A stretch of DNA of 32,000 nt from Candidatus Nanosynbacter lyticus. GTDB taxonomy: Bacteria; Patescibacteriota; Saccharimonadia; Saccharimonadales; Saccharimonadaceae. Under the pieces are notes generated by a model, which worked only from the letters and a program-made list of their open reading frames with translations, ran no database searches and was not told the DNA's origin. This document shows, piece by piece, positions 2,539 through 29,350 of this stretch. The position numbers and the translations under genes were made by a program. The stretch spans positions 540,001-572,000 of the forward strand of contig NZ_CP007496.1 in NCBI RefSeq assembly GCF_000803625.1. The letters are read 5' to 3'. Each line of letters opens with the position of its first letter. Positions within the stretch are counted from its first letter, which is position 1.

Positions 2539-2572
2539 ACGTCATAAGCGCCACGGCGCAGATATTATTATA

Positions 2573-4675: not shown

Positions 4676-4679
4676 GTAT

Positions 4680-5963
4680 CTATTTTATCAGCAAAAAGTA
4701 GGAAACAGCACCACCAGCAACACCGACTACTAGGAATAAAATAATTAACAACAGAGTTAGCAGACCAGTTTTCTTCTTTTCTTCGCTGCGGGGCGGCTTT
4801 ACTTCCGTAGATACCGCAGCAAACATAGGCGCTGGCTCAGAGTCGACCATTTCATTTTCAGAAGAATATTGCTGTGGCGTGTCATTAGACCGAGAGGCAG
4901 GCGAGCTAGGCTGCATATTAGATTCACTATCAGCAACTTCATTCATTTCTGATACACCAGGGATGCCCGCTTCTTCAATTGCTATAATTTCTGGACTGAG
5001 GTCCATCATTGAATCTGGAGTCTCACTTAAAGCTTCCTTATCCATAGTGTAATTAGATAAATCAGAATTATACTGATGGCTCAATTTCATATCTTCCAAG
5101 CCTACAGACCCAGACTCAAGCTCGTCTTCCTCTACGCCAGATTCAGACTCTATAGAGCTTTGATCAACAGCACCAAGAGGCCTCTTCTCGACTTCAACAT
5201 TGGCAATAAATGGAGACTCTAACGGTTCGGCTATTGGAGAAGCGACAGAATCATTGCTTTCAGATAATGACTGCGCTATCTTATCGGTCAATGATAGCTC
5301 TTCAACAGGAGCGTCTTCTATCGCCGCAAGAGCCGACTCGTTCTGTATGTCCTCTAAATCAGGAGCATCGTCTAAACTATCAAGCTGATTATCTACAGCC
5401 GACAACTCCTCCTCAACCGGTGAAGTGCTACCTGTCATATTAACTACATCCACCAAATCAGCTGAAGGCTGAATTGATACGCCAGTTCGAGATGGCGCCG
5501 ACGATGCTGACTTCTGAATATTGTTAACCGATGACGGACGAACGACATCCATGAATCGGCCCGTCGGGCGCCTGGCAATTACTGGGGAAGTTTTATTTTC
5601 TTTTGGCGTCGAATCTGGGGTTTGATCAAGTGTACTGCTAGGCGCAACAGTAGCGGCGGGTGCAGAAATGATCTCAGGTTTTTCAACCAGACTATCCTGA
5701 GGAGACTGCTGTTCCGATTTAGGCTCAGCACTTGACACTAAAGAATTTGAGTTAGAAGAAGGCGAGTCTAAAGCAGGAGCAAAAGGCGTAACTGGCGGCG
5801 CAAAACTTGAGCCAACAGTACTAGTTTCTATGGTTTTGTTCTCCTCCACAGAAGGTGTTTCGACGTCATGCTTTACTTCGGCATCCACTGAATTCTTTTC
5901 TTGCTGCTTACTCATTAGAGAATTAACCGCTCTATCCAACTCGTCAAAATCAATATCTGTCAT
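4680..5963 (-). CDS. Highly acidic Ser/Pro/Glu/Asp-rich, predicted disordered protein with a single C-terminal TM anchor (hypothetical)
   Basis: A 427-aa ORF only 4 nt upstream of pcrA and 13 nt downstream of tpiA. Low-complexity composition throughout. The C-terminus EEKKKTGLLTLLLIILFLVVGVAGGAVSYFLLIK is a tail anchor with Lys residues on the N-terminal (predicted cytoplasmic) side. Confidence 0.6.
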   Translation of the reverse strand: MTDIDFDELDRAVNSLMSKQQEKNSVDAEVKHDVETPSVEENKTIETSTVGSSFAPPVTPFAPALDSPSSNSNSLVSSAEPKSEQQSPQDSLVEKPEIISAPAATVAPSSTLDQTPDSTPKENKTSPVIARRPTGRFMDVVRPSSVNNIQKSASSAPSRTGVSIQPSADLVDVVNMTGSTSPVEEELSAVDNQLDSLDDAPDLEDIQNESALAAIEDAPVEELSLTDKIAQSLSESNDSVASPIAEPLESPFIANVEVEKRPLGAVDQSSIESESGVEEDELESGSVGLEDMKLSHQYNSDLSNYTMDKEALSETPDSMMDLSPEIIAIEEAGIPGVSEMNEVADSESNMQPSSPASRSNDTPQQYSSENEMVDSEPAPMFAAVSTEVKPPRSEEKKKTGLLTLLLIILFLVVGVAGGAVSYFLLIK

Positions 5964-9754: not shown

Positions 9755-9970
9755 ATGGTAAAACAGAAGAAGAAACGCAATAAAAAATATTCTGGCGCAG
9801 ACGCTACAGTTCAACGACCAAAAATAACACGTATCACAGCAGCAAATCGCTCCAAATTATCTCAATGGCTATTTGACCGAAAGAAGATTATTCGCATAAT
9901 TGGCATAACCTTGCTAATTGTCGCTGCAATTATAATTACTGTTTCTGGAATCGTCAGCCTATTTCGCTAA
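9755..9970 (+). CDS. Small Lys-rich, C-terminally TM-anchored protein (hypothetical, 71 aa)
   Basis: MVKQKKKRNKKYSG...IIRIIGITLLIVAAIIITVSGIVSLFR. The start is chosen at the in-frame ATG placed 6 nt after a TATAAT. The upstream part of the tracked ORF (9683-9754) would cover that promoter. Confidence 0.5.
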   Translation: MVKQKKKRNKKYSGADATVQRPKITRITAANRSKLSQWLFDRKKIIRIIGITLLIVAAIIITVSGIVSLFR

Positions 9971-12126
9971 CGAACTGGCAGCTTAAATCCGAAGGTACTA
10001 CCCTTTCCTTCTTCTGATTCAAAAATCATTTCCCCATCGTGCGACAAAATGACTTTCTTCGCCAAGAATAACCCGACGCCCGTACCATCGGGCCGTCGTT
10101 TTTTAGCATTAGTGCCACGGAAAAACTTGCCAAATAGATTTGCCTGCTCCGACTTTGGCACACCAATTCCCGAGTCCTTTACTGAAAACTCAATCATTTT
10201 ACCACTACTCTTTAAAGTAATCACCACCTTTTTGTGTGGGTTTGAATAATAAATAGCATTGTCAATCATATTCAGCATAACTTGGCGAATCTTCTCAGAA
10301 TCAAACGCTAGCGAAGGTATCTTTTTATCAATCTTTAAGACCATCTCGACCGAGCGCTGATCTGCCACAACCTTAAGTAATGAGACTTCATCACGGAGAA
10401 TCTGTGCGATATCCACACTCTGTTTATCAATGGTAAACTTTCCAGTCTGAAGCCGCGACACATTAAGAAAGTCATTAATTAACCGCACCATTCGTTCACT
10501 AGAAGAAAATGCCTCTCTAAGAACCGCTCGCTGGGTTGGCGATATTTTCCCCAAATCTCCTTCCAGCATCATATCCAAGTAACCTTTAATGCTAGTCAGT
10601 GGCGTTCTTAACTGATGTGAAGCCATAGAAATAAACTCATTTTTCGCCTCATCCAGACGCTGCAGCTGGCGGTTACTAAACCTCAGCTCTTTTGTTGCCT
10701 CATCAATTCTACGCTGCAAACTTTTATTTAGCTCATTTATTTCTTCCATTGAAAGAGAGTTGCGTATTGACACGGCCAGCTCACCAGAAATTGATTCCAA
10801 CATTTCAATATCCCGAGAGCTATAACCCAAGCTCTTATGCTCCCCTAAAAATAAAATTCCTGTTTCTTGATTTTGATGTAAAAGAGGTATGACAATTTTT
10901 GTACGATGAATATCTAAGAGTTTTTTTAGCTCTGGGTCCTTAACTTGATTCGCTAATATAACCTCTGGAAAACTGCAATTTTTATAGTAATAGTCCATAA
11001 TCCTACGCACGTCCTCCTCGACAACCGACAAGCGCCGCCGACCAGTTCGACCATAAATTCCCTTTTCTGGAATACAAAACGCCACTTTCTCCGCTTTCAA
11101 TGAACTTGCTATATAATTGCCGACCCGCCGCGTCAGCAATTGTAGGTCCACCGTGTAAGTTAATATCTTACTAATCTCGCGCGCAAAAGTATCAGCGTCA
11201 TACTCACCATAATAAAAAACCCTATCCGTCAACTTATTAAAGAACCTCTTAATGGGCTGATATAAGAACGCCAAAAGTATAGCTAGAACCATGTTCATGA
11301 AATTCAAACGACTATCAATTGTCAAGGTCCGCTGGAAAATAACAATCGAAATCACATAAGCAGAGATTATGTAAACGACAGCTAGCGCGATTAGCAGTAG
11401 CATGTATGAAACACTGCGAGCCACTGCCGTTTTTACGTCCATTAATCTATATTTTACGATGCTATACATAATTGCAAACAGAAAGAGGATAATTGCCACC
11501 GGTCCAACCCACACGTATCTATAATCGCCAAGAGCTGGCAACAATAAGTCAACTACAAACCCCGGAATACTAGATACCAACAAGCCAGTCATGTAAATGG
11601 CCACCTGCTTACGGCGAATAGTATCAGACTTCCGCCACGCCACATAACCAAACCACATAACAACTAAGAAAAATACTGAGAAAAAAGTAGCAAAAACTAT
11701 ATAATTGACAGCATTAATAGGAATTTGTGAAAAATCTACTGGTGTCGTAATCTCTGATGCGTTAATAATAAACTCAGGCGCCAAAATAATATATATAGAC
11801 AATACTATAAATAACGAACTAGATATAAAGATAAAACTCCTTACGGACTTCGTTAGGGGAAGAAATGACTTAGCGGTAAAGATAGCCAACGCTGGACAGA
11901 AAACCGCCGAAGCAACATAAAACCACCGCGAAGCAATGTCTAGTGCTGCTCCATTATCCGCCAAAGAAAACATCTCTAGTCCAGCCGACCACACAGCCAA
12001 GCATAAACAGACTAAGAAAAACCACTGTTTAGTATCGTAATGGCGTTTAGATTTTTTAAGCACTAGCATGCCTAAAATTAGCGCCATTAGCGCAACCATA
12101 CCCAGTACTAATGCTCGAGACATCAT
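9967..12126 (-). CDS. Sensor histidine kinase: polytopic N-terminal membrane domain (7TM-type), GAF-like domain, HisKA, HATPase_c
   Basis: About 8 hydrophobic helices in the first ~300 aa. H-box FISMASHQLRTPLTSIKGY, N-box MLNMIDNAIYYS, G1 DSGIGV, G2 GTGVGL. The GAF-like segment ends at ILFLGEHKSLGYSSRDIEMLESISGELAVSI. Confidence 0.88.
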   Translation of the reverse strand: MMSRALVLGMVALMALILGMLVLKKSKRHYDTKQWFFLVCLCLAVWSAGLEMFSLADNGAALDIASRWFYVASAVFCPALAIFTAKSFLPLTKSVRSFIFISSSLFIVLSIYIILAPEFIINASEITTPVDFSQIPINAVNYIVFATFFSVFFLVVMWFGYVAWRKSDTIRRKQVAIYMTGLLVSSIPGFVVDLLLPALGDYRYVWVGPVAIILFLFAIMYSIVKYRLMDVKTAVARSVSYMLLLIALAVVYIISAYVISIVIFQRTLTIDSRLNFMNMVLAILLAFLYQPIKRFFNKLTDRVFYYGEYDADTFAREISKILTYTVDLQLLTRRVGNYIASSLKAEKVAFCIPEKGIYGRTGRRRLSVVEEDVRRIMDYYYKNCSFPEVILANQVKDPELKKLLDIHRTKIVIPLLHQNQETGILFLGEHKSLGYSSRDIEMLESISGELAVSIRNSLSMEEINELNKSLQRRIDEATKELRFSNRQLQRLDEAKNEFISMASHQLRTPLTSIKGYLDMMLEGDLGKISPTQRAVLREAFSSSERMVRLINDFLNVSRLQTGKFTIDKQSVDIAQILRDEVSLLKVVADQRSVEMVLKIDKKIPSLAFDSEKIRQVMLNMIDNAIYYSNPHKKVVITLKSSGKMIEFSVKDSGIGVPKSEQANLFGKFFRGTNAKKRRPDGTGVGLFLAKKVILSHDGEMIFESEEGKGSTFGFKLPVR

Positions 12127-12137
12127 GCTAATGCTTA

Positions 12138-13499
12138 TTATAGCATTTTATCTGGTTTTTCAACCGCAAAAACCGAGTAAACACTACTTGCGGTAATATT
12201 TGCGGTAATATTATCCTTTGATACACCAGCCGCTTGAAGCAATTTAAGACTTCTGGCAATTGGACGCATGATTACGTTTGGAGTCCAACCCATTAAACCA
12301 TGGAGAAAATCTTTTTGCGGACGATTTGCATTCATATTGCCGGTAATCATTAGACCGCCATCTCGCAAGAATCCCCAAGATTCCTCCGTTAATTTTTTAT
12401 GCACCATATCAGGAAGATATTCGCGCAAGCCAGAATCCTCCATGACATCTACTTGCCGACCTTTTAAAACTTTCTTCAGACCCAACGGACGCCCAAACTT
12501 ACTAAAAAGCCTATGGCAATGAATCTCCACGTTATTTTCCAGTCCCATTTTCTTTGCTAGATTCTGCGCTGCCGCTAAAGCCAGCGGATCTTGATCAATC
12601 AAAATAGCCGTTGGAGCCTGGCCAGTTTTTTCTTTTAGTTCTTTTAGCATCTCTAGGGTCGGCAGTCCGGTTCCGCAACCAAAGCTCATGACTAGCATAT
12701 CGTCAATTGACCGATTCTCATTTTGCATATCAATATCCAATATGTGATCAATGGTTATTTTTTTCACCAAATCTCCCCGCTCACGGATACCCAGCGAATC
12801 CATGCAATATTTAATAACCTCAGCAAATTTTGGCGTCACCGGCGCTTTGATAAATTCGCGAACATTATTGATTCTCTCATCTACCGCTCGTGCTGCTTCT
12901 TGTTGAGTTTTATCGTGATTTGCCACTTCGGCTTCAATCATCATGTATCTCAACGGAACACCGTCAATCTTTTCGTCAAATAACGATTCGCCTACTGGAC
13001 CGCTCATTGTTGGATATCTGCCCGGAAAGGCCAACTTGCCACCCTCTATAACCGCCAAAGAAAATGCCGGCCCAATTGATAAGAACGTTGAAGCTGAGCC
13101 CCGTTGCTTATGCCACGGCTGAGAGTTAGTCTCTTTCTCACCGTACAGCAACTCATCACGGTAAGTTTCTAAGAAGTCATCAAGTTCTTTATTCCAACGA
13201 CCCGCCAATTTACTTATAAAAGGAATTTTACTCACAACAGCAACTGCAGCCCTACCCATATTACTGCGAATAAACCTATTTCGCACTTCTCTTAATTCTC
13301 TTCCGCCTCTTTCCAGATAGCTATATACTTTTTCAATCTTCTCTGGATTATCATATGCAGGATCGTTCTTTTCGCCCACCCGAACCTCATATCCTTGAGC
13401 TCTGAGGTCTGCAATTTCTCCATTTAATTTTTTATTAGCTTCGAAGTCAAACCCATCAACAAACTCGCGACCGCCACAATTATTCCCAAATTTTTCCAT
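12138..13499 (-). CDS. Two-part protein: unknown ~270-aa N-terminal region plus C-terminal class I SAM-dependent methyltransferase-like fold
   Basis: Motif I VMSFGCGTGLPTLEML, acidic post-I ILIDQDPLAL, motif II-like VDVMEDSGLREYL, LRDGGLMITGN. The stop lies 11 nt before the kinase ATG. I do not recognise the N-terminal region. Confidence 0.6.
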   Translation of the reverse strand: MEKFGNNCGGREFVDGFDFEANKKLNGEIADLRAQGYEVRVGEKNDPAYDNPEKIEKVYSYLERGGRELREVRNRFIRSNMGRAAVAVVSKIPFISKLAGRWNKELDDFLETYRDELLYGEKETNSQPWHKQRGSASTFLSIGPAFSLAVIEGGKLAFPGRYPTMSGPVGESLFDEKIDGVPLRYMMIEAEVANHDKTQQEAARAVDERINNVREFIKAPVTPKFAEVIKYCMDSLGIRERGDLVKKITIDHILDIDMQNENRSIDDMLVMSFGCGTGLPTLEMLKELKEKTGQAPTAILIDQDPLALAAAQNLAKKMGLENNVEIHCHRLFSKFGRPLGLKKVLKGRQVDVMEDSGLREYLPDMVHKKLTEESWGFLRDGGLMITGNMNANRPQKDFLHGLMGWTPNVIMRPIARSLKLLQAAGVSKDNITANITASSVYSVFAVEKPDKML

Positions 13500-13539: not shown

Positions 13540-13914
13540 ATGATAAAAATTGCCATCATTGAAGACGACCCAACCATCAGCCAGATGTACCGAATGAAAT
13601 TTGAGTCAGATGGATTTGAAGTCCGCCTGGCGGCCAACGGCCAGATTGGTATAGAAGTTGTCGAAAAATTCCAACCAGATATCATTCTACTGGATTTACA
13701 AATGCCAGAGATGGATGGCACAGAAGCCTTAAAACACATTAGGTCTAAGGATTGGGGGAAAACTATTCCCGTTATTGTCCTGACTAATTTAGGCGAAGAA
13801 GAGGCGCCGCGCGAATTGAAAAAACTAGGCATACACAGCTATATCGTAAAAGCCAACCTTACACCGCGCCAAGTCGCTGAGCAAGTTAAATCTGCTATAA
13901 AGACTACTTCCTAA
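13540..13914 (+). CDS. Stand-alone receiver-domain response regulator (CheY-like, no output domain)
   Basis: Acidic pocket IIEDD, phospho-acceptor Asp in IILLDLQMPEMDG, T in VLTNLG, K in YIVKA. At 124 aa there is no room for an effector domain. Confidence 0.88.
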   Translation: MIKIAIIEDDPTISQMYRMKFESDGFEVRLAANGQIGIEVVEKFQPDIILLDLQMPEMDGTEALKHIRSKDWGKTIPVIVLTNLGEEEAPRELKKLGIHSYIVKANLTPRQVAEQVKSAIKTTS

Positions 13915-15740: not shown

Positions 15741-17546
15741 ATGGATCCATATTTTTACACAGAAAAACCAAAATACCAACTACAAGACATCGAAGATGCC
15801 TCTGAATTTTATGACATCATTGAACGTAGTAGCTTGACTCATCAGCTGTCTAGCTCCAGACCGTATATCTACTGGACGATGGAAATTTACGACAAAGCCA
15901 ACGGCATCAAAGGTGGTGGCGGCTTGGGCGTGCTGGCGGCGGACACACGGCGAGTGGCCGAAAAATTAGACGTGCCATTTGTGGTAGTGACGCCATTTTA
16001 CCGCAGTGAATCGCACCAAAAAATTACCAACCTAGAGCAGGAAGAATTTTCAGAAACTGTATCACCAAAAGACTATGGCTTTGAATACATCGACGAAGTG
16101 TCCATTAGTTCACGTGGGTTTCCTGATGCTAGTTTGAGTATTTTCAAAAAGGTACTCGGCTCAACGCAATTTATTACCATCTCAGAGCCAAACTTTGGGA
16201 AATTGTACGAAGGTGAAGGCTCGGGCGATCACCGACTTTACCAAGAAGTCGCGCTTGGATTTGGCGGCTATAAAGCGCTCAAGCTACTCGGCATCAAGCC
16301 AGCCGTCATCCAGCTCAACGAAACCGCAACAATATTTGCGGCACTGGCGCGACTGGACGAGCTATGTGCCAACGGCATGAACCTGTATGAAGCAATCGTC
16401 TACGTGCGCAAGCACACGCTCTATACCAACCACACCCTGCTACAGGCAGCTGAGCCAGAATTCCACCGCTCACAATTTGAAAAATTGGTACTGCCAAATC
16501 TCAAAAGCAACGCCGTGCGCTGCTGGCTGATGGAGCAATTTCGTAACGACCGCTTGCGACCGAATTTGCTGGCAATCGAACTGACCGAAGCCAAAAATGG
16601 TGTCAGTAAACTGCACGCACGAGTGGCGAATTTCCGCGACCGCAACAACGACAAGGTCAAATTTCACGCAATTACCAATGGCATCGACCTGGAGACATGG
16701 ACGCTACCAGAAACTCTTCAGACATATCACAATAACAATATCATAGATAAATTTGGCCTACCTACAGATGATTTTTCTCGGCAATTAAATCTCATCCACA
16801 GTGCCGATATAAGATATCTAAAAAAGCTGGGGCGTAAAGAGCTCAATCGAGTTTTATTAAAACGCCAGGATCAATACAACAAATCCATCCAGGTCCCAGA
16901 AAATGCAATATTATTCGACTTCAAGCGGCGATTCGCCAATTATAAACGACCCTACATGCCATTCGAAAACCCCAACGCACTACGGCAAATCCTAATCAAT
17001 CACAACGCGCACTACATACTGACAGGAAAAGTCCACCAGGGCGACGTAACTATGTACCAAAAACTATTAGAGGTCCTAAAGTTAATTGATCAAGATCCAG
17101 TTCTACGCGAAAGAGTTCATTACATACAAGATTATGATGAAGAATTAGGACGAGCCTTAGCAATCGGATCTGACATCGCCATAAATATACCTATTGTTGG
17201 ACTAGAGGCCTGCGGGACATCATGGGAAAAAGATATCGCTAACCTAAAAATACTTATTTCCACGAACGATGGCGGCGTAGCAGATATTCAACCAATTGCC
17301 TGCTTGGAAGTGTCTGGTAAAAATTATGAGGCTGAGGTCTTATCGCTATACGTTAATATGCATAAAGCTGCAGCCATAGTGAAAAATGATCAGCTGCTGG
17401 AAAAACATATACGTCACCAGTTAAATAATTACTTACCAATAATTTCTGGCGCCAGGATGATGAAGGATTATCTAAAATTTATATTTCCCAAAACACAAAC
17501 TCAGCCTAAAAAAGAGCCCTCTGTTAAGCGAATTGTTATTCAATAA
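15741..17546 (+). CDS. glgP: Alpha-glucan (glycogen/maltodextrin) phosphorylase family protein, GT35, short form (601 aa)
   Basis: GGGGLGVLAADTRR (the GGLG.LAGD-type motif), NGVSKLHA, ITNGID. GLEACGTSWEKDIANLKILISTNDGGVADI aligns by eye with the EASGTxNMK...TLDGANVEI PLP-lysine region. Confidence 0.7.
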   Translation: MDPYFYTEKPKYQLQDIEDASEFYDIIERSSLTHQLSSSRPYIYWTMEIYDKANGIKGGGGLGVLAADTRRVAEKLDVPFVVVTPFYRSESHQKITNLEQEEFSETVSPKDYGFEYIDEVSISSRGFPDASLSIFKKVLGSTQFITISEPNFGKLYEGEGSGDHRLYQEVALGFGGYKALKLLGIKPAVIQLNETATIFAALARLDELCANGMNLYEAIVYVRKHTLYTNHTLLQAAEPEFHRSQFEKLVLPNLKSNAVRCWLMEQFRNDRLRPNLLAIELTEAKNGVSKLHARVANFRDRNNDKVKFHAITNGIDLETWTLPETLQTYHNNNIIDKFGLPTDDFSRQLNLIHSADIRYLKKLGRKELNRVLLKRQDQYNKSIQVPENAILFDFKRRFANYKRPYMPFENPNALRQILINHNAHYILTGKVHQGDVTMYQKLLEVLKLIDQDPVLRERVHYIQDYDEELGRALAIGSDIAINIPIVGLEACGTSWEKDIANLKILISTNDGGVADIQPIACLEVSGKNYEAEVLSLYVNMHKAAAIVKNDQLLEKHIRHQLNNYLPIISGARMMKDYLKFIFPKTQTQPKKEPSVKRIVIQ

Positions 17547-19059
17547 CTACTTCAATTTCAGCACCCAAAGAATTTAAGCGAGCAGCCAGTTCTTCGTAGC
17601 CACGGTTAATTGAATACACATCCCTTAGAATAGACACGCCTGGCGCCGCCAGCATCGCAAGCAATATAACAACAGACGGACGAAGCGCTGGTGGAGCAAC
17701 AACATCAGCAGATTTCCATTTTGTTGGACCAGTGATATAAACGCGGTGCGGATCGACTAGCTCAATTTGCGCGTTCAACTTACTAAGCTCGGTGAAATAA
17801 ATTGCTCGGTTTTCATAGCTCCAATCATGCACCAACGTACGACCTTTAGCAACCGTTGCAATAAGCCCCAGAAACGGCAGATTATCCATATTAATTCCAG
17901 GAAACGGCAAAGCATGCAGCTTGTCTTTGGCGGCCTGGAGCTTGGAGCGATACAGCATAATGTCCACCAAACGAGTCTGCCCATTGTCAGCCAGATATTC
18001 CTCGCTCAGCTCAAACTTAAGACCCATCTCTGCTAACGTAGCTAACTCAATTTCCAAAAACTCAATTGGTGCACGACGAATAGTAATTTCTGAATCTGTC
18101 ACCACGCCAGCCGCAATAAAACTCATCGCCTCAATTGGATCTTCGCTTGGGTAATAATCCAAATTTTTGCTAATTCGTTTACGTCCTGTAATTTTTAGAG
18201 TCGTCGTTCCAATTCCCTCTATTTTTACACCCAGCTTCTTTAAGAAAAAGCAAACATCCTGAACCATGTAATTTGGGCTAGCATTGCGAATGATAGTCGT
18301 ATCTGGAGAAAGCGCCGCCGCCATAATAATATTTTCAGTTACTGTATCGCCACGCTCCGTTAAAAGAATCGTCCGATCGCCAGAATGGACATTGGTTTTC
18401 GCATGATAATAATCAGTTTCTGCCGTTACACTCATGCCAAAATGTCTTAACCCGCTCAAGTGAGGCTCCACTGTGCGCTTACCCAAGTTACAGCCGCCCG
18501 CAAACGGCAGCTTAAAATCCTCATATTGGTAAAGTAGTGGGCCTAGGAACATAATCACCGTACGCGTACGCTTAGCAGCGGTAATATCCATATCCTCCAG
18601 CTTTAGCCTAGCAGGGGGAATAATCTCCAAATCACTACCGTTCAACCAGCGAGTTTTAACACCAATTGAATTTAGAACCTCAATAATCCGATTAACTTCC
18701 TCAATTCGTGCCACCTTCCTGAGGGTTGTCTTACCCTTATTTAGCAAGCTTGCGCAAAGGAGCCCCACTGCAGCATTTTTACTTGTCTTGACCTGTATCT
18801 CACCAGACAATTTTTTTCCGCCAGACACTCTAAAATTCATTTTTCCAGAATGATTCACAGTCACGATATTATTATTAAGCACTTCACTAATACGAGCAAT
18901 CATCTCAATACTAATATTCTGACCACCGTTTTCAATACGATTAATGGCACTCTGAGATGTACCAATTGCTTCAGCCAACTGCATCTGCGTTAACCCTTGC
19001 TTTTGGCGATTTTCAGCAATTAAATTGCCGATTTTTTGAAGATACTTATCTTTTATCAT
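17536..19059 (-). CDS. murA: XRE-family helix-turn-helix domain fused in frame to UDP-N-acetylglucosamine 1-carboxyvinyltransferase (MurA)
   Basis: Residues 1-73 carry an HTH_3 motif: GLTQMQLAEAIGTSQSAINRIENGGQNISIEMIARISEVL. From M74 (MNFRVSGGKKLSGEIQVKTSKNAAVGLL...) the protein is a full MurA, with the KNAA lysine, the FAGGCNLGKR active-site Cys/Arg loop, and ALRPS. No stop separates the two parts. Confidence 0.85.
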   Translation of the reverse strand: MIKDKYLQKIGNLIAENRQKQGLTQMQLAEAIGTSQSAINRIENGGQNISIEMIARISEVLNNNIVTVNHSGKMNFRVSGGKKLSGEIQVKTSKNAAVGLLCASLLNKGKTTLRKVARIEEVNRIIEVLNSIGVKTRWLNGSDLEIIPPARLKLEDMDITAAKRTRTVIMFLGPLLYQYEDFKLPFAGGCNLGKRTVEPHLSGLRHFGMSVTAETDYYHAKTNVHSGDRTILLTERGDTVTENIIMAAALSPDTTIIRNASPNYMVQDVCFFLKKLGVKIEGIGTTTLKITGRKRISKNLDYYPSEDPIEAMSFIAAGVVTDSEITIRRAPIEFLEIELATLAEMGLKFELSEEYLADNGQTRLVDIMLYRSKLQAAKDKLHALPFPGINMDNLPFLGLIATVAKGRTLVHDWSYENRAIYFTELSKLNAQIELVDPHRVYITGPTKWKSADVVAPPALRPSVVILLAMLAAPGVSILRDVYSINRGYEELAARLNSLGAEIEVVIE

Positions 19060-20394: not shown

Positions 20395-20409
20395 TTCCTA
20401 AAACATAAT

Positions 20410-20443
20410 AAAACTCCGGTACTATGACCGGAGTTTTATTATT
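20410..20443. terminator. Bidirectional rho-independent terminator between glyA (+) and the pilin gene (-)
   Basis: AAAACTCCGGT-actatg-ACCGGAGTTTT, an 11-bp stem with T-rich runs on both strands. Confidence 0.8.
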
Positions 20444-20456
20444 GGTATATGACTGA

Positions 20457-20882
20457 TTAACAGCCAGTACCAACTATGCGAGTCTCAACAGTATTCTTAC
20501 TGTAGTCGTAGTACTCAATCTTTGCACCCGTTGGGTCGCCGGTACCACACTTAGTGTATTTAACTGTTGTAGTTGGAGTACTTGAACCAAAAGTACCAGT
20601 ACCTAATTCAGCAACATTGGCTGGAGCAATGTAGTAAGACTTCTTTGTGTCTGCACCAGTCAAGTCTGAAACCTGAGCTGGATACTTACCCTCTTCGGTG
20701 TTGTACAGTTCAGCTTTCTTAGCAACTGAGTCAACTGTTGATTTAGCAGCTGATGTCTTTGCCTGGTTCTGCAAACCGTTGTATGCAACCAAAGAAACAA
20801 CTGTCAAAATCGCGATAATCACGATAACAATCAAAAGCTCAACGAGCGTAAAACCTTGATTTTTAATATTCTTTGTAGTCAC
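20457..20882 (-). CDS. Type IV pilin (major-pilin candidate; PilA/PilE-like)
   Basis: Class III signal MTTKNIKNQG|FTLVELLIVIVIIAIL with Glu+5. C-terminal Cys pair (KCGTG...GTGC) typical of the pilin D-region. GTG start with AGGGGG SD 10 nt upstream. Its own 78-nt upstream spacer and a strong terminator. Confidence 0.85.
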   Translation of the reverse strand: MTTKNIKNQGFTLVELLIVIVIIAILTVVSLVAYNGLQNQAKTSAAKSTVDSVAKKAELYNTEEGKYPAQVSDLTGADTKKSYYIAPANVAELGTGTFGSSTPTTTVKYTKCGTGDPTGAKIEYYDYSKNTVETRIVGTGC

Positions 20883-20960
20883 GATAATGTGCCCCCTAAA
20901 TTGTGTTAGTTTGATTTGTAATTTGATAATACTACAACGTATTTAAAAGCGCAAGCATTT

Positions 20961-22691
20961 TTAATATATATATCGATTCTGGACTGGACGAAGGAATAAT
21001 GACTCTGTTGGACTAAACCTATTATTCTCACTACCTGAAGTTCCGTCACCAATCTGCCCATTATCATTTAATCCCCAACAGTAAGAACGCTTATTTGTCA
21101 TAATTGCACAACCGCGGTTTGCTCCCGCCGCAATGTCCACTACCGACTCTGTTGGCGGCAATCCACCAATACCAACATAAACAGGCTTCGGACTGGTAGA
21201 AAATTGTGGAGTATTAGAATTAATCCCCAGCTGACCAAGCTTATTATCACCCCAGCAATATACCTTCTTATTGCCATGATCGTTCACTAAGGCACAAGAG
21301 TGAGCAATCCCAACCTCAATTCGTAGCGGAACTCCCGGTAGACTATTAACTTGTACTGGCTGAAAATGCGCACCAAAGGCACCATGGCCCAGAGGACCAG
21401 ACTGCCCGCGACCAGCACCACCCCAACAATACACCTTACCTGAGGCAATAGCGCAGGTATGAGATACGTAGGCATGATCTGACGCCCAAGTATAACCATC
21501 TTGAGATATATCAGTTACATTTTCTAAGTCCTTAACTCGAGTAGCGTAACTGTAGTGATTACCAGATATTGGACCAATACCCATCTGGCCAAACCTGGCT
21601 AGACCCCAACAATAAGCCCTTTTTTCAGTAGTTATAGCACACATTGTTTGCGAGCGCGATCCACCGGTTGCCAACTTAGTTGCAAAATAATTACTAGGAA
21701 GTCTATTATGGCCGCCTGAGTTAATCTGCACTGGCGTAGCACGAAATCCAGGGTTTCCAGGATTTCCGAAGCCCAATTGGCCCATATTGTTCCGACCCCA
21801 GCAGTAAATTTTACCAGACACAATAGCACAGGAGACGTCACCAGTTCCTCCAATTGACGTAACGTCTTTACCTACGAGAGCGCCACCAACCTCAACCGGA
21901 ACACTAGAATAATTACCCTCCCCAGATGACCCATTGCCTAGCTGACCGTCTTTATTACTACCCCAACAATATACTTTTTTATTACTGCCCAGCTGAGTTA
22001 GTACGCAGCTGTGGTGCTGTGCTGTAAATATATCAATAATCTTTCCATATTTCATGTCACCAACAGAACGAACTTTTACTGGAATATTGGAGTCGTTGGT
22101 AGTGCCATCCCCTAATTGACCCATATTATTACTACCCCAACACCATACGTTGTTTGACAGAATCGCACAGGTGCGGTTAGTGCCACTCACTGTGCGCGTT
22201 GCGTCGATATCAGCCGGCCAGGTCACAGACTTTTTAACAATAACTGTATAGGTTTTTATTACTCTGCTACCGCTCATCACTTCAGTTCTACCAATAGCGG
22301 AAATCTGAGCAGTAGCGGCTGACAGTGCTGACGCTTTAGTCGAAGCCTCTAATTTACCAACCTCAAAATTTGTTCGCAATTTACCATTTTCAAATACATA
22401 TTTATTCCCACTAAACTTTACCGCCCCCAAACAGTCAGTTTCCGGGCGAAGCGGGCCTGCACTGCCGGCAGCTGGAGTCCACGATTGCTCTGCATTATTA
22501 GCATCCAGACAGGCGTTGGCATATGCTGTACCCGCCTCACCAGCTTCTTGGGCTAATTTATAATAATATTCCTCCTGCGAGTAGATATATGACTGCGTCA
22601 CAACTCTCATAGCGCCCGCCAAAACCACTAATATAAAGGTGCTCATAAGCACGATTAGCACCAAGGAGTAGCCGTCTTTTTTTCGCATCAT
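20961..22691 (-). CDS. PilX/GspK-like minor pilin module fused to a seven-repeat RCC1-type beta-propeller
   Basis: N-terminus MMRKKDG|YSLVLIVLMSTFILVVLAGAM has no Glu+5. It is followed by a PilX-like helix and sheet (AQEAGEAGTAYANACL ... IGRTEVMSGSRVIKTYTVIVKK). Seven RCC1 repeats follow: WCWGSNNMGQLGDG, YCWGSNKDGQLGNG, YCWGRNNMGQLGFG, YCWGLARFGQMGIG, YCWGGAGRGQSGPLGHG, YCWGDNKLGQLGIN, YCWGLNDNGQIGDG. Confidence 0.8.
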   Translation of the reverse strand: MMRKKDGYSLVLIVLMSTFILVVLAGAMRVVTQSYIYSQEEYYYKLAQEAGEAGTAYANACLDANNAEQSWTPAAGSAGPLRPETDCLGAVKFSGNKYVFENGKLRTNFEVGKLEASTKASALSAATAQISAIGRTEVMSGSRVIKTYTVIVKKSVTWPADIDATRTVSGTNRTCAILSNNVWCWGSNNMGQLGDGTTNDSNIPVKVRSVGDMKYGKIIDIFTAQHHSCVLTQLGSNKKVYCWGSNKDGQLGNGSSGEGNYSSVPVEVGGALVGKDVTSIGGTGDVSCAIVSGKIYCWGRNNMGQLGFGNPGNPGFRATPVQINSGGHNRLPSNYFATKLATGGSRSQTMCAITTEKRAYCWGLARFGQMGIGPISGNHYSYATRVKDLENVTDISQDGYTWASDHAYVSHTCAIASGKVYCWGGAGRGQSGPLGHGAFGAHFQPVQVNSLPGVPLRIEVGIAHSCALVNDHGNKKVYCWGDNKLGQLGINSNTPQFSTSPKPVYVGIGGLPPTESVVDIAAGANRGCAIMTNKRSYCWGLNDNGQIGDGTSGSENNRFSPTESLFLRPVQNRYIY

Positions 22692-23515
22692 AAGTTATTA
22701 ATCTTTCGTATAGTTAATGTTTGTGATTCAGAAATCTGTTTACTTGGCGACTGTAATTTTAAAGTAACTACTACATTATCAGCAGAATCAAGTATCCCTG
22801 GGTAGCTTTTAACTACATCGTATTGATCAGGTATTTTCGTTTTCCCCTCGTAATACTCAACTTCGAATTCAGAAACACCGGTTGCTAAAATTGAATCTTG
22901 ATGAACCTTCATGGCTCGGTCTTTAAATTTATTAGCCTCTACATTATTCATACAGAAATAATTACCAGCAGACCCCGAGTATGGATGTCCATACGGGTCA
23001 ATCATGTCGTTATAGATAGTACGTCTATGCAATTCTCCGTTATTTAAGAAATATATTATTATTTTTTTATACTTAGGCTGCTGAGTCTTCTTAGTCGCAC
23101 AGTCGCCGCCTGGAGTTCTTAGATAAACAATCTGCCTCGAGTCTGCACCATGTCCCATAGTGGTCGCATATTGTAGCAATATCAGGACCCTATTTGTCCC
23201 GTTGACGTATGGTGTATTCATGTAGCTCCAGCTATGCCCAGCTCCAGAAAAACTCCTATCTACAGCGAACGTATCATAACCGTCATAGCCACTGGCTTTA
23301 AATCGCACTGCCTGCCGTACATCAGTTTCAATTGCATCCATGGAGTTGTGAAGATTGCGGTTAATATCAACCCTAGCCCGACTAATAGAAGCGCTTTGAT
23401 TTGACGAGACCAGCATCTGGCTAAAGACACCGACGACCATAGCAATAATTACCATTACTAATACTAATTCGGTTATTGTGAATCCATTTTCTTTAGAATG
23501 CTGCGTATGTTGCAT
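22688..23515 (-). CDS. Minor (pseudo)pilin, PilW/GspJ-like by size and position
   Basis: MQHTQHSKENG|FTITELVLVMVIIAMVVG prepilin N-terminus with Glu+5. 275 aa. 4-nt overlap with the downstream gene. Confidence 0.75.
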   Translation of the reverse strand: MQHTQHSKENGFTITELVLVMVIIAMVVGVFSQMLVSSNQSASISRARVDINRNLHNSMDAIETDVRQAVRFKASGYDGYDTFAVDRSFSGAGHSWSYMNTPYVNGTNRVLILLQYATTMGHGADSRQIVYLRTPGGDCATKKTQQPKYKKIIIYFLNNGELHRRTIYNDMIDPYGHPYSGSAGNYFCMNNVEANKFKDRAMKVHQDSILATGVSEFEVEYYEGKTKIPDQYDVVKSYPGILDSADNVVVTLKLQSPSKQISESQTLTIRKINNL

Positions 23516-23960
23516 GTGTCACCTTTCTTCCACTGCCAACCCCAGAAGACGGCAATCCATATTCTACTACTGACTCTACCTTAACCGGCATACCTAAGCT
23601 AGACTTGCCACCACCACTACTACTAGCATCCTTACATCCATACGGCGCCGAAGCATACACCTCCTGCCTCACCATACCTGGCAAGCCATCAACACTCTCC
23701 GTTCTTTCCATAACTCTATATCTAGTACCAGATGAACCAGTGTTACACTTAAACCATGACGGCGGAGAGTCGTTCGCGTAACGACGCATATTATTGTAGG
23801 CCAGAAAACTTGCCTTCGTTTGCTGCGCACTCAATACTGAAATTGTACTGACCTGAGCTTGCATACTTAATATGACAACCATAAAAATACCAATAACAAC
23901 CAGTGTCACTGCCACCTCAACTATTGTAAAGCCCTCGCTTCTATTTACTAGTCGCGCCAT
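23493..23960 (-). CDS. Minor (pseudo)pilin, PilV/GspI-like by position
   Basis: MARLVNRSEG|FTIVEVAVTLVVIGIFMVV prepilin N-terminus with Glu+5. 23-nt overlap with the downstream gene. Confidence 0.75.
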   Translation of the reverse strand: MARLVNRSEGFTIVEVAVTLVVIGIFMVVILSMQAQVSTISVLSAQQTKASFLAYNNMRRYANDSPPSWFKCNTGSSGTRYRVMERTESVDGLPGMVRQEVYASAPYGCKDASSSGGGKSSLGMPVKVESVVEYGLPSSGVGSGRKVTHATYAAF

Positions 23961-24433
23961 ATACTATCCACCTTTTTTTCTGCCCCAGTGGACAAATCTT
24001 TATACGTGATACTATGCCTGACGCAAGTTGCTGCAACTATATCAGATGGCGCGCCAGATGCCGGCTTAGTGCAGTCATGTCCATCAATATTTGAGGCTTC
24101 ATATAATATTTCGCCGTTACTTCCGCCAGCCCAGTCGCTACGACTACACTTTATCATTTCCTTTTTCAAAGAATCGCCTCCTACAATTGACGAAAAATTC
24201 CTGGTTAAATCACCACACGACGGATATTCATGCCCGATGCCGCTTGTATTGTTATATTTATAATACCTCTCCAGCTTTAGTGATAGCTCGGAAATATTAG
24301 CTCGCTGTTTTTCTCTTTTAATGAGATTTGAAAATCTTTCACTACCAACAAAGGTGAGGCCCGCTAAAATTGACACGACTACAATAATTATCGCCAACTC
24401 GATTAACGTATAACCACCCATCCTACGATTCAT
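23948..24433 (-). CDS. Minor (pseudo)pilin, FimU/GspH-like by position
   Basis: MNRRMGG|YTLIELAIIIVVVSILAGL prepilin N-terminus with Glu+5. The start is placed at ATG 24433, since the tracked ORF starts 2 codons earlier at a TTG that would lie inside the promoter spacer. Confidence 0.75.
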   Translation of the reverse strand: MNRRMGGYTLIELAIIIVVVSILAGLTFVGSERFSNLIKREKQRANISELSLKLERYYKYNNTSGIGHEYPSCGDLTRNFSSIVGGDSLKKEMIKCSRSDWAGGSNGEILYEASNIDGHDCTKPASGAPSDIVAATCVRHSITYKDLSTGAEKKVDSIWRD

Positions 24434-24440
24434 ATTCAAT

Positions 24441-25760: not shown

Positions 25761-25818
25761 AATTATATCTATAAATTGCTTACTTTTTATATTAAATAGT
25801 GGTATAAATGTGAGCACT

Positions 25819-26544
25819 ATGGAGACCGGCAAACAAAGACCCGCAAATGATTTCCATAGCGCAATGGAAGCAGTTATAAAAGCAATACGCGAGAAAAAAT
25901 TCGGACAAGCGGCGATATTAGCCTCCCCGGCCTATAATTTAACACCAAACTTATCCGAACAAGCCCGTGCTGCCCGTGATTTAAGTGCCGCCTACCGCCA
26001 TCAAGGCGACTACGATGAATCCGAAAAATGGGCCACTGAAGCAGTGGAGCAACATGAAGCTTTGGTCGAAGAAGGAGAGAATCGCAGTACGCTACGTGAA
26101 CTGGGTGCGAGCGTCGCAACGCTCGGAACCCTGCAGCTACAGCATATCGTAACAGACCCTTCTTATGATAATCAGGAAAACTCTCAACGGGCAGCAGAAA
26201 ATCTAAGCAAAGGTCTGCGCTATATTGAAGAGTCTCGCGAGCATGCTGCAGACAAGAACCGCAAGATTGACCAATATGACATTAACTTTACTGCTCGTAC
26301 AGGCTTCGCTGAAGCGTTGGCTGGCGATACAAAGAGGAGTCTAGCACTGGGCGCAAGAGCTGTGCGGTTGGCGTTTTTGTCTGAATCACCAAAGATTGAC
26401 ACTTCAAATCCAAATATGACAGCCAAAGAACGCTTCAAATCTAAGGCTCGCGCGTTTGTAAGAGGCGTTGGCGCGGTAGCTGTGGCGGCAGTGGCGCCAT
26501 CTAATAGGGAGTTGGCTAAATCTATTGTCGAGAGGCTTAATTAA
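25819..26544 (+). CDS. Hypothetical all-helical (TPR-like?) protein
   Basis: A 244-aa tracked ORF starting at GTG 25810. I prefer ATG 25819 because TATAAA (25803-25808) sits immediately upstream. I recognise no family motif. The C-terminus has an Ala/Val-rich segment (FVRGVGAVAVAAVAPS). Confidence 0.5.
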   Translation: METGKQRPANDFHSAMEAVIKAIREKKFGQAAILASPAYNLTPNLSEQARAARDLSAAYRHQGDYDESEKWATEAVEQHEALVEEGENRSTLRELGASVATLGTLQLQHIVTDPSYDNQENSQRAAENLSKGLRYIEESREHAADKNRKIDQYDINFTARTGFAEALAGDTKRSLALGARAVRLAFLSESPKIDTSNPNMTAKERFKSKARAFVRGVGAVAVAAVAPSNRELAKSIVERLN

Positions 26545-28979
26545 TTGGCCGATGGAATCACTGGAGCTTGAGGAGTTTGGCTACTTAAAATCTGACGAAT
26601 TTGCTCAGCGGTAATAATTGTAGTTGATCCAGGCGCAATTGTACCAGCTAGCATTTGCTTAGCGACAGTATTCTCAACCGCTCGTTGGACAACGCGACGC
26701 ATCGGACGGGCGCCCAGGCGCGGATCGTAGCCAGCTTCAACCAATAGCTTCTTACCTTCCTCTTCAACTGCAACTTGAATTTTTTGCGGTGCCAAAGTTT
26801 TATTAACACCAGCCAAAATCAAATCGACGACCTGCAATAGCTCCTCCTTGCCTAGCGGCCGGAACAAAACAATTTCATCAAAACGGTTCAAAAACTCTGG
26901 TCGGAATAGGTTAGCGTTGATTAACTCATCAATAAACGTTTGCTCAAATTGCTCCAGCTGATAACCACGCTCGATATATTCACGAATTCTATCCGCTCCA
27001 GCGTTTGACGTAGCAATGACAATCGTATCGCGAAAACTAATTTCCCGGTTATTTTCATCACGCAGGATACCCTCGTCCAATAGCTGCAGTAAAGTCGTCA
27101 ACACCTGCGGATGAGCTTTTTCAATCTCATCCAGTAGCACCACTGAAAACGGCTTTTTTTGCACCTGAGCCGTCAAGCTACCTGAGTCGCGCGCCCCATC
27201 GGCAATCAGCCGCGCTACATCATCTGGGCGGACAAACTCGTTTAAATCTAAGCGAATCATACTACCTTCGCCGCCAAAATAAACATCCGCCAAAGCTTTG
27301 GATAATTCAGTCTTACCAACACCAGTCGGACCGAGGAACAGGAAAGCGCCAATTGGGCGATTTTGGTTCCTAACGCCAGTACGCGCCCGACGAATAGCAT
27401 CGGAAACAACCGTAACCGCCCGCGACTGATTAATCATGCGCTGGTGAATCAGAGATTCCAAATTCAGCAGCTTTTCCCTCTCGTCACTTAGCGATGCCAC
27501 GGAAATCTTTATACCGAGTGTCTTCTCAATAGCGTCATCCACTGATTGTGCCGTCACCAGCCCATCACTAGCATAGCTTGCCGCTGCCTCTAAAATTTTT
27601 AGAGCCTTACCCGGCATTACCAAGTCCTGAACATATCGATCGCCCACTCGGTAAGCCTCCGCCAAAGCTTGATACATATACCTAACTTTATGTTGTGCCT
27701 CAAACAGCACCAGTTGATCACGCATAATTTTCATAGTTTCCGATTCACTAGACGGCTGAATAGCGATGGTATTTAAGGCGTGAGCTAGCTGCGGTTTAGT
27801 CTGAGAAATTTGCAAGAAACGCTGCTCGTCCATTGTCAAAATCATCCTCAATCTGCCAGCTTCTAGAATTGGCAGTAGTACATTACTCAAATCAACAGAA
27901 CCAACGCCCTCTTCAAAAAATAGCTGTGCATTATCCAGGCATAAAATAACATTCTTTGATAAAAACGCCTCATTTAAGATCATTGTTACCAGATTTTCCA
28001 ATTCACCGCGACCCGACGCTACGCTAACCAAAGATGAAGAGTCAAGTATAAAAACTTGCTGATACATCAACGACCCAGGAACGCCCTGATGTCCATCAAT
28101 CAACATCTCTGCAAACGCCGAAACTACCGTACTTTTCCCAGCGCCATCAGCACCAATTAACGCAATGTTCTGACGACCACCTGAGCTAAATATTTTCATC
28201 ATTTGCTCAAGCGCACTTTCATGCGCCGCCAACTTTGTAGTAAGCATCTGACCGGAAATGTTAGCGCTAATATTCTGCGCAAAGCGGCTCAGCAGCGGAG
28301 TATAACCGAACGACCAATCTCTGGCAATTCCGCCAGTCCGTAACGGTTTTTTGTTATGCTCTTCAATTAATGCCTTTATACGCTCGTACCACTTGATAGT
28401 CTCTTCGATATCCTGAAAATCAATTTTCATATTTGCCAGCAACGAATCATGCTGCGGCAACTGTTTTACTATAGCCGCGGCTAAAACCGCACTGGTAATC
28501 TTCGGACTTTTAGTGCTCTGCCAAATCTCAATTGCCGCTTTCCAGACCTGCTCGGTTTGGTCTGGATTGTCAACGGAAATATTATGTAAAAAGTTTGGCG
28601 TTAAACCCAGGCGCAAGGCTAAAAACTGTCCAGCTCGAGTGCCCGTAATCGCTTCAGCAATATCAGTTGGTGTTGGTCGGCGTGGCAACTTCCCCAAAAC
28701 GTCAGCCGCCATCACATCATCAATAGTCTGCGGATTCTTATTAATCTCCGCCGTCTTCAAATCTTTCTCCCACCAAATAGACAGCATAACCATCGGACCG
28801 CTTAGACCCAGCATCAGCCAGCCGACCGATCCGTGTTCAATCAGCATCCACACCCCAAGCACCACTATCATGATACCAATTGCTATTACCACAACGTGCC
28901 AAGCATTGCCGAATCTAACTGAAAACCTTGCCTTTTGGGACCTCAAACTATCGTAATTAAATTTTGGCTGCACATTCAT
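26541..28979 (-). CDS. Membrane-anchored double-AAA+ Clp/Hsp100-family ATPase (atypical: 2 N-terminal TM helices, no M-domain, no ClpP-docking tripeptide)
   Basis: TM helices WHVVVIAIGIMIVVLGVWMLI and WLMLGLSGPMVMLSIWW. Clp_N-like repeats. D1 Walker A IGADGAGKST and Walker B ILCLDNA. D2 Walker A LGPTGVGKT and Walker B VVLLDEIEKAH. D2-small ARPMRRVVQRAVEN. The start at ATG 28979 forms an ATGA overlap with the upstream gene's stop. Confidence 0.85.
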   Translation of the reverse strand: MNVQPKFNYDSLRSQKARFSVRFGNAWHVVVIAIGIMIVVLGVWMLIEHGSVGWLMLGLSGPMVMLSIWWEKDLKTAEINKNPQTIDDVMAADVLGKLPRRPTPTDIAEAITGTRAGQFLALRLGLTPNFLHNISVDNPDQTEQVWKAAIEIWQSTKSPKITSAVLAAAIVKQLPQHDSLLANMKIDFQDIEETIKWYERIKALIEEHNKKPLRTGGIARDWSFGYTPLLSRFAQNISANISGQMLTTKLAAHESALEQMMKIFSSGGRQNIALIGADGAGKSTVVSAFAEMLIDGHQGVPGSLMYQQVFILDSSSLVSVASGRGELENLVTMILNEAFLSKNVILCLDNAQLFFEEGVGSVDLSNVLLPILEAGRLRMILTMDEQRFLQISQTKPQLAHALNTIAIQPSSESETMKIMRDQLVLFEAQHKVRYMYQALAEAYRVGDRYVQDLVMPGKALKILEAAASYASDGLVTAQSVDDAIEKTLGIKISVASLSDEREKLLNLESLIHQRMINQSRAVTVVSDAIRRARTGVRNQNRPIGAFLFLGPTGVGKTELSKALADVYFGGEGSMIRLDLNEFVRPDDVARLIADGARDSGSLTAQVQKKPFSVVLLDEIEKAHPQVLTTLLQLLDEGILRDENNREISFRDTIVIATSNAGADRIREYIERGYQLEQFEQTFIDELINANLFRPEFLNRFDEIVLFRPLGKEELLQVVDLILAGVNKTLAPQKIQVAVEEEGKKLLVEAGYDPRLGARPMRRVVQRAVENTVAKQMLAGTIAPGSTTIITAEQIRQILSSQTPQAPVIPSAN

Positions 28980-29350
28980 AGCGAAACCCCCATTTGCCAC
29001 AGCACAATTCCCACAAACGGCAATAGCGGCAAGATCAGCCACAGAATAATTCCCAGAATCATCCACAAAACCCTCAGTAATATCATCAATATTCCGACAA
29101 TTATCACTACAGAGCGTACCACCATGCCAACCACGCGTGAAAATAACTTATCGAAAAATGCCGACAACTGAACTGGCGCAGCACCGCCAACTGGAGACGC
29201 TGAAATCTGACGAAACGGATTAAATAACGTTTTTAATAACAATCCGACCGAAAAAAAGTCTGCCGTTCGCAAAACCCCCAAAAAACCTTGCTGAATGTGT
29301 TGCAATAATCCACTGCCATACCACCACTGAAAGATCCCCACCAAAAACAT
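28976..29350 (-). CDS. Small polytopic membrane protein (hypothetical, ~124 aa)
   Basis: MFLVGIFQWWYGSGLL...FFSVGLLLKTLFNPF...VVGMVVRSVVIIVGILMILLRVLWMILGIILWLILPLLPFVGIVLW. The start is set at M18 of the tracked ORF, 6 nt after TGCTACAAT. The stop overlaps the Clp-like start (ATGA). Confidence 0.6.
   Translation of the reverse strand: MFLVGIFQWWYGSGLLQHIQQGFLGVLRTADFFSVGLLLKTLFNPFRQISASPVGGAAPVQLSAFFDKLFSRVVGMVVRSVVIIVGILMILLRVLWMILGIILWLILPLLPFVGIVLWQMGVSL

Follow-up and report, generated by a model that had tools for sequence, protein, structure and literature searches.

Among described systems, the closest counterparts of PilX2, the product of a gene at positions 20961–22691 (minus strand) of a 32 000-nucleotide (nt) stretch of the genome of Candidatus Nanosynbacter lyticus TM7x (NZ_CP007496.1, positions 540 001–572 000, hereafter the window), are the modular pilins of Streptococcus sanguinis, the PilY1/PilC proteins of type IV pili (T4P), and the GspK/PilX minor (pseudo)pilins. 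The S. sanguinis proteins PilB, with a vWA module, and PilC, with a ConA-like lectin module, consist, like PilX2, of a pilin module, a short linker, and a bulky module for adhesion, the last probably tip-exposed (Raynaud et al., PNAS 2021, PMC8179133; PNAS 2023, PMC9934059). PilX2 fits the definition of a modular pilin (sensu Raynaud et al. 2021). However, the canonical IPR012902/N_methyl signature, which was the selection criterion of the 2021 survey, is present in PilB and PilC, whereas PilX2 has neither an N_methyl match nor a glutamate at position +5 (Glu+5), and its effector module, unlike theirs, is an RCC1 propeller (the term RCC1 has 0 occurrences in the main text of that survey, PMC8179133).

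The PilY1/PilC proteins of Pseudomonas aeruginosa, Neisseria, and Myxococcus xanthus, presented by FimU-PilVWX, resemble PilX2 in that a seven-bladed propeller is displayed through a minor-pilin complex and has roles in adhesion. PilY1, however, is a non-pilin with a propeller of the IPR008707/PilC type, whereas in PilX2 a propeller of the RCC1 type is covalently fused to the pilin, and a Pfam search of PilX2 detected RCC1-type families only and no PilY1-type domain. By analogy, PilX2 would work like PilY1 without being a member of PilY1/PilC. The GspK/PilX proteins share with PilX2 a leader ending in Gly, the lack of Glu+5, the status of largest subunit, and a gene that follows GspI/J-like (PilV/W-like) genes. 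In contrast, no significant sequence or profile similarity of PilX2 to GspK/PilX was found (a probability of 4% in hhalign against Escherichia coli GspK; no PilX_N match), and the extra domain of GspK is an α-domain inserted in the β-sheet, whereas PilX2 has a C-terminal propeller. The propeller itself has the same fold and repeat type as UVR8, RCC1, and the RCC1-like domain (RLD) of HERC2; these are eukaryotic and intracellular, whereas the propeller of PilX2 would be extracellular and mounted on a pilin.

The gene under study is pilX2 of Candidatus N. lyticus TM7x. An exact-sequence look-up equates the window protein with AJA06892.1/WP_082001351.1 over 576 of 576 residues, where it is annotated as 'hypothetical protein TM7x_02980'. 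The supplementary table of Grossman et al. (bioRxiv, 25 November 2024; ISME J 2025, June 2025; PMC12206443) assigns TM7x_02980 to pilX2, and 02975, 02985, 02990, and 02995 to pilA2, pilW2, pilV2, and pilZ2, respectively, the set being called 'T4P locus three'. The published deletion primer PilX2_Up_R (PMC12206443) carries the reverse complement of the sequence directly upstream of the open reading frame (ORF) in the window.

Grossman et al. describe PilX2, from an AlphaFold model, as a minor pilin bearing a 'hepta-bladed β-propeller domain with RCC1 repeats' ('7 Bladed β-propeller' in the legend of their supplementary Fig. S2) and propose it as a T4P-2 adhesin 'similar to PilY1' (PMC12206443). 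The T4P-2 filament is thin (1.8 nm wide) and non-retractile and is abolished by deletion of pilA2, and pilX2 is the minor pilin gene with the highest expression (PMC12206443). Deletion of pilX2 yields a viable mutant that keeps thin filaments (2.7 versus 2.5 per cell in wild type); its host binding falls from 10.6% in wild type to 4.6%, similar to the 4.8, 3.9, and 3.7% of hosts bound by the pilA2, pilB2, and pilC2 deletion mutants, and it no longer displaces a competing Saccharibacterium, strain BB004 (PMC12206443). In a second study (Nat Commun 2026), binding to gingival keratinocytes drops to ~3% in the pilX2 deletion mutant, and a dot blot shows binding of recombinant TLR2 by the purified PilX2 'binding domain', from P159 to the C-terminus (PMC13194787).

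The finding is thus already known for exactly this gene, which was named, modelled, deleted, and proposed as an adhesin in 2024–2026. An initial annotation, made from the sequence alone, had taken the domain combination to be undescribed, which is incorrect, as the paper of November 2024/June 2025 had described it (PMC12206443); the annotation's proposal that a minor pilin occupies the PilX slot, with the propeller replacing a PilY1-type protein as host-recognition adhesin, agrees both with the published work and with our models. What we add beyond the published work is modest: a family census, an invariant Gly-1 and Cys pair, a recombination mosaic, and a conserved C-terminal tail. We consider it likely that PilX2 is a pilin of the initiating complex, probably cleaved by PilD, that displays its RCC1 propeller as a first-contact adhesin at the pilus tip.

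The RCC1 propeller and the pilin module of PilX2

The protein comprises the following parts, given in window coordinates with the basis of each assignment in brackets (AF2, AlphaFold2; dN/dS, ratio of nonsynonymous to synonymous substitution rates):

22671–22691, minus strand: residues 1–7, putative class III leader MMRKKDG with Gly-1 at its end (invariance of G7; hhalign alignment)
22500–22670, minus strand: residues 8–64, predicted α1 helix, with a hydrophobic α1-N and Leu at +5, then YYxxLAxEAGEAGxAYAxxC (AF2 model; conserved motif)
22218–22499, minus strand: residues 65–158, globular part of the pilin module, a loop with the conserved C61...C87, W71, L81, and G89 and then a predicted antiparallel β-sheet (AF2 strands; invariant residues)
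21027–22217, minus strand: residues 159–555, predicted seven-bladed RCC1-type β-propeller (seven Pfam RCC1 stretches; AF2; Foldseek)
20964–21026, minus strand: residues 556–576, C-terminal tail, NRFSPTESLFLRPVQNRYIY (94% mean identity; dN/dS 0.05)

The propeller is marked by seven [WY]CWG-x4-7-GQxG motifs, at residues 183, 241, 296, 360, 421, 478, and 537, with a spacing of ~55–60 residues. Pfam RCC1 (PF00415) matches in seven stretches (E = 8e-49; 164 bits, cut-off 21.7), RCC1_2 likewise in seven stretches (E = 1.6e-39, above the gathering score), and the RCC1-like-domain model WD40_RLD (PF25390) with E = 2e-60 and 205 bits (cut-off 150), bearing out the seven RCC1 repeats of the initial annotation. 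With 32 orthologues as input, AF2 yields a model of seven four-stranded blades, with a predicted local distance difference test score (pLDDT) of mostly 85–95 over residues ~165–560. The best Foldseek match of the model is UVR8, with a target-normalised template-modelling (TM) score of 0.91, a root-mean-square deviation of 2.1 Å, ~410 aligned columns, and 25–26% identity; the other matching propellers are RPGR, HERC2, and RCC1, at target TM scores of about 0.7–0.84, and the whole UVR8 and RPGR propellers are covered (0.81–0.91). From the pLDDT of 85–95 and the TM score of 0.91 to UVR8, the propeller is predicted to close as seven blades, which is the outcome that the initial annotation had looked for in a structural model. 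The AF2 models place the boundary between the pilin module and the propeller at residues ~158–165.

The N-terminus of PilX2, MMRKKDG↓YSLVLIVLMSTFILVVLAGAM (arrow, putative cleavage point), has the short basic leader with Gly-1, followed by ~20 hydrophobic residues, that is found in type IV pilins. The hydrophobic stretch runs from residue ~8 to residue ~28, with Leu in place of Glu at +5 from the Gly, in accordance with the hydrophobic pilin-type N-terminus without Glu+5 that had been read from the sequence; the peptides quoted in that reading, AQEAGEAGTAYANACL... and ...IGRTEVMSGSRVIKTYTVIVKK, are present in PilX2. In 32 orthologues, and likewise in 28 distant members of the N-module family described below, G7 does not vary. 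Specifically, the residues invariant across the 28 distant members are G7, A50, E52, G54, A58, C61, W71, L81, C87, and G89, of which C61 and C87 probably form a disulfide, and PilD would cleave between G7 and Y8. An AF2 model of the N-module built on a diverse family alignment (pLDDT 88.5; predicted TM score 0.77) comprises a helix at residues 9–64 (56 residues, pLDDT 95–98) followed by a three-stranded antiparallel sheet (strands 105–111, 126–140, and 143–158), a predicted topology resembling the pilin lollipop.

Profile comparisons gave weak signals. The curated prepilin model NF007660 is weakly matched by half of the distant family members (14 of 28, best E = 6e-4), and Pfam PilX_N is weakly matched by two of the 28 (best E = 0.0019). 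Alignment of the N-module profile with E. coli GspG, GspH, GspI, GspJ, and GspK by hhalign gives probabilities of 1–5%, with no discrimination among them, and sets the invariant Gly of the N-module on Gly-1 of GspH/I/J/K. A Pfam search with residues 1–160 returned 0 families even at E ≤ 10; searches of PDB sequences with the N-module (phmmer, and hmmsearch with a 28-sequence profile) returned noise only; and word-index homology searches with the N-module and with its profile returned only fragments of close orthologues. The hidden Markov model table of Grossman et al. is likewise blank for pilX2 (PMC12206443).

Overall, the assignment of the N-terminal module of PilX2 as a pilin module is well supported. 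Of the PilX-like module in the initial annotation, the part that stands is a pilin module of ~150 residues with a lollipop-shaped AF2 model and Gly-1, while no homology to PilX/GspK emerges (0 Pfam families; 4% in hhalign against GspK). The label 'PilX/GspK-like' rests on the missing Glu+5, the gene order (FimT-like, PilV-like, PilW-like, X), the Gly-1 leader, and the shape of the model, and is not shown by homology.

Relatives of the N-module and their partner heads

To define the N-module family, we performed an exhaustive phmmer search with residues 1–165 against 1.84 billion representative sequences, counted as clusters at 50% identity. The family so found has 535 clusters at E ≤ 1e-3, of which 96 reach E ≤ 1e-10. 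In every case the match is N-terminal, in proteins of 130–1045 residues, and the family has the consensus (R/K)G↓FALPTVLIAS...QYYxxLAxEAAEAG...C...W...PL.P.TDC.G. The partner domains among 77 full-length members are, in particular, the RCC1 propeller (54 members), ricin-B lectin (19), phage tail-collar (7), Gp10_C (6), ConA-like lectin (5), and Gly_rich_2 (5); further partners are a neurotoxin receptor-binding domain, fibrinogen-C, PA14, and CBM_4_9. The ricin-B lectin is often inserted in, or added to, an RCC1 propeller. The fusion that the initial annotation had suggested seeking in related genomes is thus present in 54 of the 77. Since the partner domains are nearly all receptor- or glycan-binding modules, the census independently supports a design in which a carrier is joined to an adhesin. 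The family has no detectable IPR012902/N_methyl, so that the 2021 modular-pilin survey, keyed on IPR012902, would miss it.

Within this family, pilX2 is a real, conserved gene, with more than 100 full-length homologues at 68–97% identity; among named genomes, its carriers are Candidatus Nanosynbacter and other Saccharibacteria. Identity to TM7x is distributed unevenly along some of these alleles. Specifically, over residues 1–180 homologues P0069 and P0072 agree with TM7x at 100%, in the pilin module and blade 1 alike, and only at 42–72% in blades 2–7, and homologue P0003 has the reverse pattern, with 75–90% identity in the N-module and 93–100% in the blades. Compared in this way, the discordant identities of N-module and blades indicate recombinational exchange of the propeller among Nanosynbacter alleles, with a breakpoint near residue ~235. 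The word 'recombination' occurs 0 times in the supplement to the ISME J article (PMC12206443). The dN/dS calculated by region with the NG86 method is 0.04–0.25 and peaks in residues 396–512, which indicates relaxed constraint; the accelerated variation envisaged in the initial annotation, there for one propeller face, does not emerge as positive selection on the propeller in these values.

The C-terminal tail, PTESLFLRPVQNRYIY (...SPTESLFLRPVQNRYIY), is invariant. A tail motif, PTE[SA]LFLRPxxNxY[IV][YF], is kept in relatives with 35–45% N-module identity, and nearly all propeller-bearing members of the family end in Tyr or Phe. The tail may be a docking strand; because the AF2 model leaves the last 11 residues at low confidence and unplaced, we offer this docking role only as a hypothesis.

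Taking these observations jointly, we tentatively suggest, as a possibility that we hold with less than even confidence, that the PilX2 N-module represents a large, mostly Patescibacterial family of carrier pilins that lack Glu+5 and bear exchanged receptor-binding heads, that a cassette comprising blades 2–7 sets host or strain specificity, and that the aromatic-ended tail docks the head onto the tip complex, as an intramolecular counterpart of PilY1 held by PilX.

The pilin cluster and the candidate role of PilX2 at the pilus tip

Of five consecutive minus-strand genes, pilZ2-pilV2-pilW2-pilX2-pilA2, the fourth is pilX2, and N_methyl is matched in all of the other four. In order of transcription, the features are:

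23948–24439, minus strand: pilZ2 (TM7x_02995), first in the cluster, FimT/GspH-like minor pilin of 163 residues (N_methyl match; weak GspG/GspH matches)
23493–23960, minus strand: pilV2 (TM7x_02990), PilV/GspI-like minor pilin of 155 residues (N_methyl match; TIGR02523 PilV, 2.3e-5)
22688–23515, minus strand: pilW2 (TM7x_02985), PilW/GspJ-like minor pilin of 275 residues (N_methyl match; GspJ, 7e-5)
20961–22691, minus strand: pilX2 (TM7x_02980), modular minor pilin of 576 residues (exact sequence identity and locus tag)
20457–20882, minus strand: pilA2 (TM7x_02975), major pilin of the thin T4P-2 filament, 141 residues (identical to AJA06592.1; N_methyl, 1.5e-8)
20401–20437, minus strand: hairpin and T-run after pilA2, ACTCCGGT-catagt-ACCGGAGT TTTATTATGTTTT (read directly from the sequence)

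Overlaps of 13 nt between pilZ2 and pilV2, 23 nt between pilV2 and pilW2, and 4 nt (ATGA) between pilW2 and pilX2 suggest that the first four genes are translationally coupled. The order PilV-like, PilW-like, RCC1-fusion is kept at 26% identity in another Saccharimonadia locus (L042), in keeping with the linkage of relatives to pilin genes on which the initial annotation had depended.

A different arrangement is seen in an environmental Patescibacteria contig (L029, positions 2009–4991), where two adjacent RCC1-propeller proteins, one of 490 residues with a PilX2-type N-module and one of 498 residues with a different transmembrane N-terminus, adjoin a PilB-type ATPase and have no PilV- or PilW-like genes upstream.

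Between pilX2 and pilA2 is a gap of 78 nt (20883–20960, minus strand), in which a TATTAT box and, as ribosome-binding site, AGGGGG precede the GTG start of pilA2; transcription of the highly expressed major pilin may start from an internal promoter here. The transcription unit probably ends at the hairpin and T-run after pilA2. A consensus scan for promoters and terminators returned sites no more frequently than in shuffled sequence and missed the pilA2 hairpin.

Among subunits of the GspK and PilX types, it is typically the first (tip) one that lacks Glu+5. By analogy with GspK, the missing Glu+5 of PilX2 fits a first subunit, and a position at the tip would follow from the same analogy. In the mechanism that we favour, PilX2 would enter the T4P-2 assembly site via its α1 helix, anchored in the membrane, would probably be cleaved after G7 by PilD, and would form with PilV2 and PilW2 an initiating complex that ends at the distal tip. 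A short linker would join the carrier module to the RCC1 propeller (residues ~159–555), which would serve as the ligand-binding head. On the filament, the propeller would be the first part to contact the bacterial host, Schaalia odontolytica, and would do so at long range, presumably through a binding face that engages a receptor on that host, and would also contact human epithelial TLR2, in line with PMC13194787.

Several observations weigh against this placement of PilX2 as a tip adhesin. SignalP predicts no PilD signal peptide for PilX1 or PilX2 (PMC12206443); PilX2 has no PF07963 N_methyl, TIGR02532, or PilX_N (PF14341) match; and a Foldseek search with the N-module model returned no significant match and no resembling solved pilin (best E = 0.2). 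The propeller has no signal of positive selection (region-level dN/dS ≤ 0.25). The binding defect of the pilX2 deletion mutant is partial, with host association fully lost in no mutant, and the deletion changes the thick (T4P-1) filament's diameter and length, an effect not obvious for a pure T4P-2 tip adhesin (PMC12206443). The protein in the TLR2 dot blot was urea-solubilised and refolded (PMC13194787), and the tip location is only 'putative' in the published papers (PMC12206443, PMC13194787).

The first three of these observations, together with the persistence of thin filaments without PilX2 (PMC12206443), could be explained if PilX2 were a pilus-independent surface adhesin, with the hydrophobic N-terminus acting as an uncleaved signal anchor and the gene merely sitting in a pilin operon. 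A pure signal anchor is judged less likely on account of the invariance of Gly-1 across a very divergent family, for which a simple anchor has no need, the translational coupling to pilW2 through the ATGA overlap, and the match between mutant phenotypes, the binding defect being as large as that of the pilA2, pilB2, and pilC2 deletions (PMC12206443). The gene order kept at 26% identity and the 56-residue α1 helix followed by a β-sheet, as in pilins, also argue against it, and we regard this explanation as unlikely.

A second explanation takes PilX2 to be mainly an assembly or priming subunit with a regulatory role, the propeller not being a ligand surface and the binding defect arising indirectly from pilus number, length, or composition. 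Grossman et al. raise priming 'like PilY1 in Myxococcus', and the altered diameter and length of thick pili in the pilX2 deletion mutant would be in keeping with it (PMC12206443), as would the classing of that mutant as 'T4P-2-deficient' (PMC13194787). However, thin filaments number 2.7 per cell in the mutant, equal to the wild-type 2.5 (PMC12206443), the isolated propeller bound TLR2 (PMC13194787), and the alternative C-terminal modules of the family comprise no assembly factors but lectins and receptor-binding domains; we consider this account decidedly improbable. The retention of thin filaments in the pilX2 deletion mutant (PMC12206443) and its grouping with 'T4P-2-deficient strains' (PMC13194787) do not match, and the mismatch bears on the role of PilX2 as adhesin versus assembly factor.

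PilX2 could also be located along the filament body and not only at the tip, with the propeller on a flexible linker providing multivalent adhesion, although a missing Glu+5 is typical of a tip subunit. For modular pilins in general, Raynaud et al. do not exclude a body location if the linker is flexible (PMC8179133), and the rank of pilX2 as the minor pilin gene with the strongest expression (PMC12206443) could point the same way, but a propeller of ~45 kDa is hard to fit beside a filament 1.8 nm wide (PMC12206443). We attach very little probability to a location along the body; display of the propeller at the tip by an initiating-complex pilin is the reading that we retain.

Other genes of the window and meaning for host association

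Elsewhere in the window, the minus-strand ORF at 17536–19059 encodes a protein of 507 residues with an N-terminal XRE-type HTH_3 domain and a full EPSP_synthase/MurA-like enolpyruvyl transferase domain, an unusual fusion of regulator and enzyme. The minus-strand ORF at 26541–29066 encodes an 841-residue Clp/Hsp100-type AAA+ ATPase (AAA_2, ClpB_D2-small) in which the usual Clp_N domain is absent and the N-terminal region resembles two or more transmembrane segments (...WHVVVIAIGIMIVVLGVWMLIEHGSVGWLMLGLSGPMVMLSIWW...). Three further ORFs, at 4680–5963 (minus strand, 427 residues), 12138–13499 (minus strand, 453 residues), and 25810–26544 (plus strand, 244 residues), match no Pfam family at E ≤ 1e-5; the 453-residue ORF lies between a seven-transmembrane histidine kinase (9967–12126) and a lone receiver domain (13540–13914).

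For the biology of this ultrasmall episymbiont, PilX2 is the best current candidate for the first recognition of the bacterial host, and engagement of human TLR2 has also been reported. The case for PilX2 is already in print, and the remaining value of our analysis is incremental: the carrier module belongs to a widespread family missed by standard pilin motifs, and its heads appear to be swapped by recombination.

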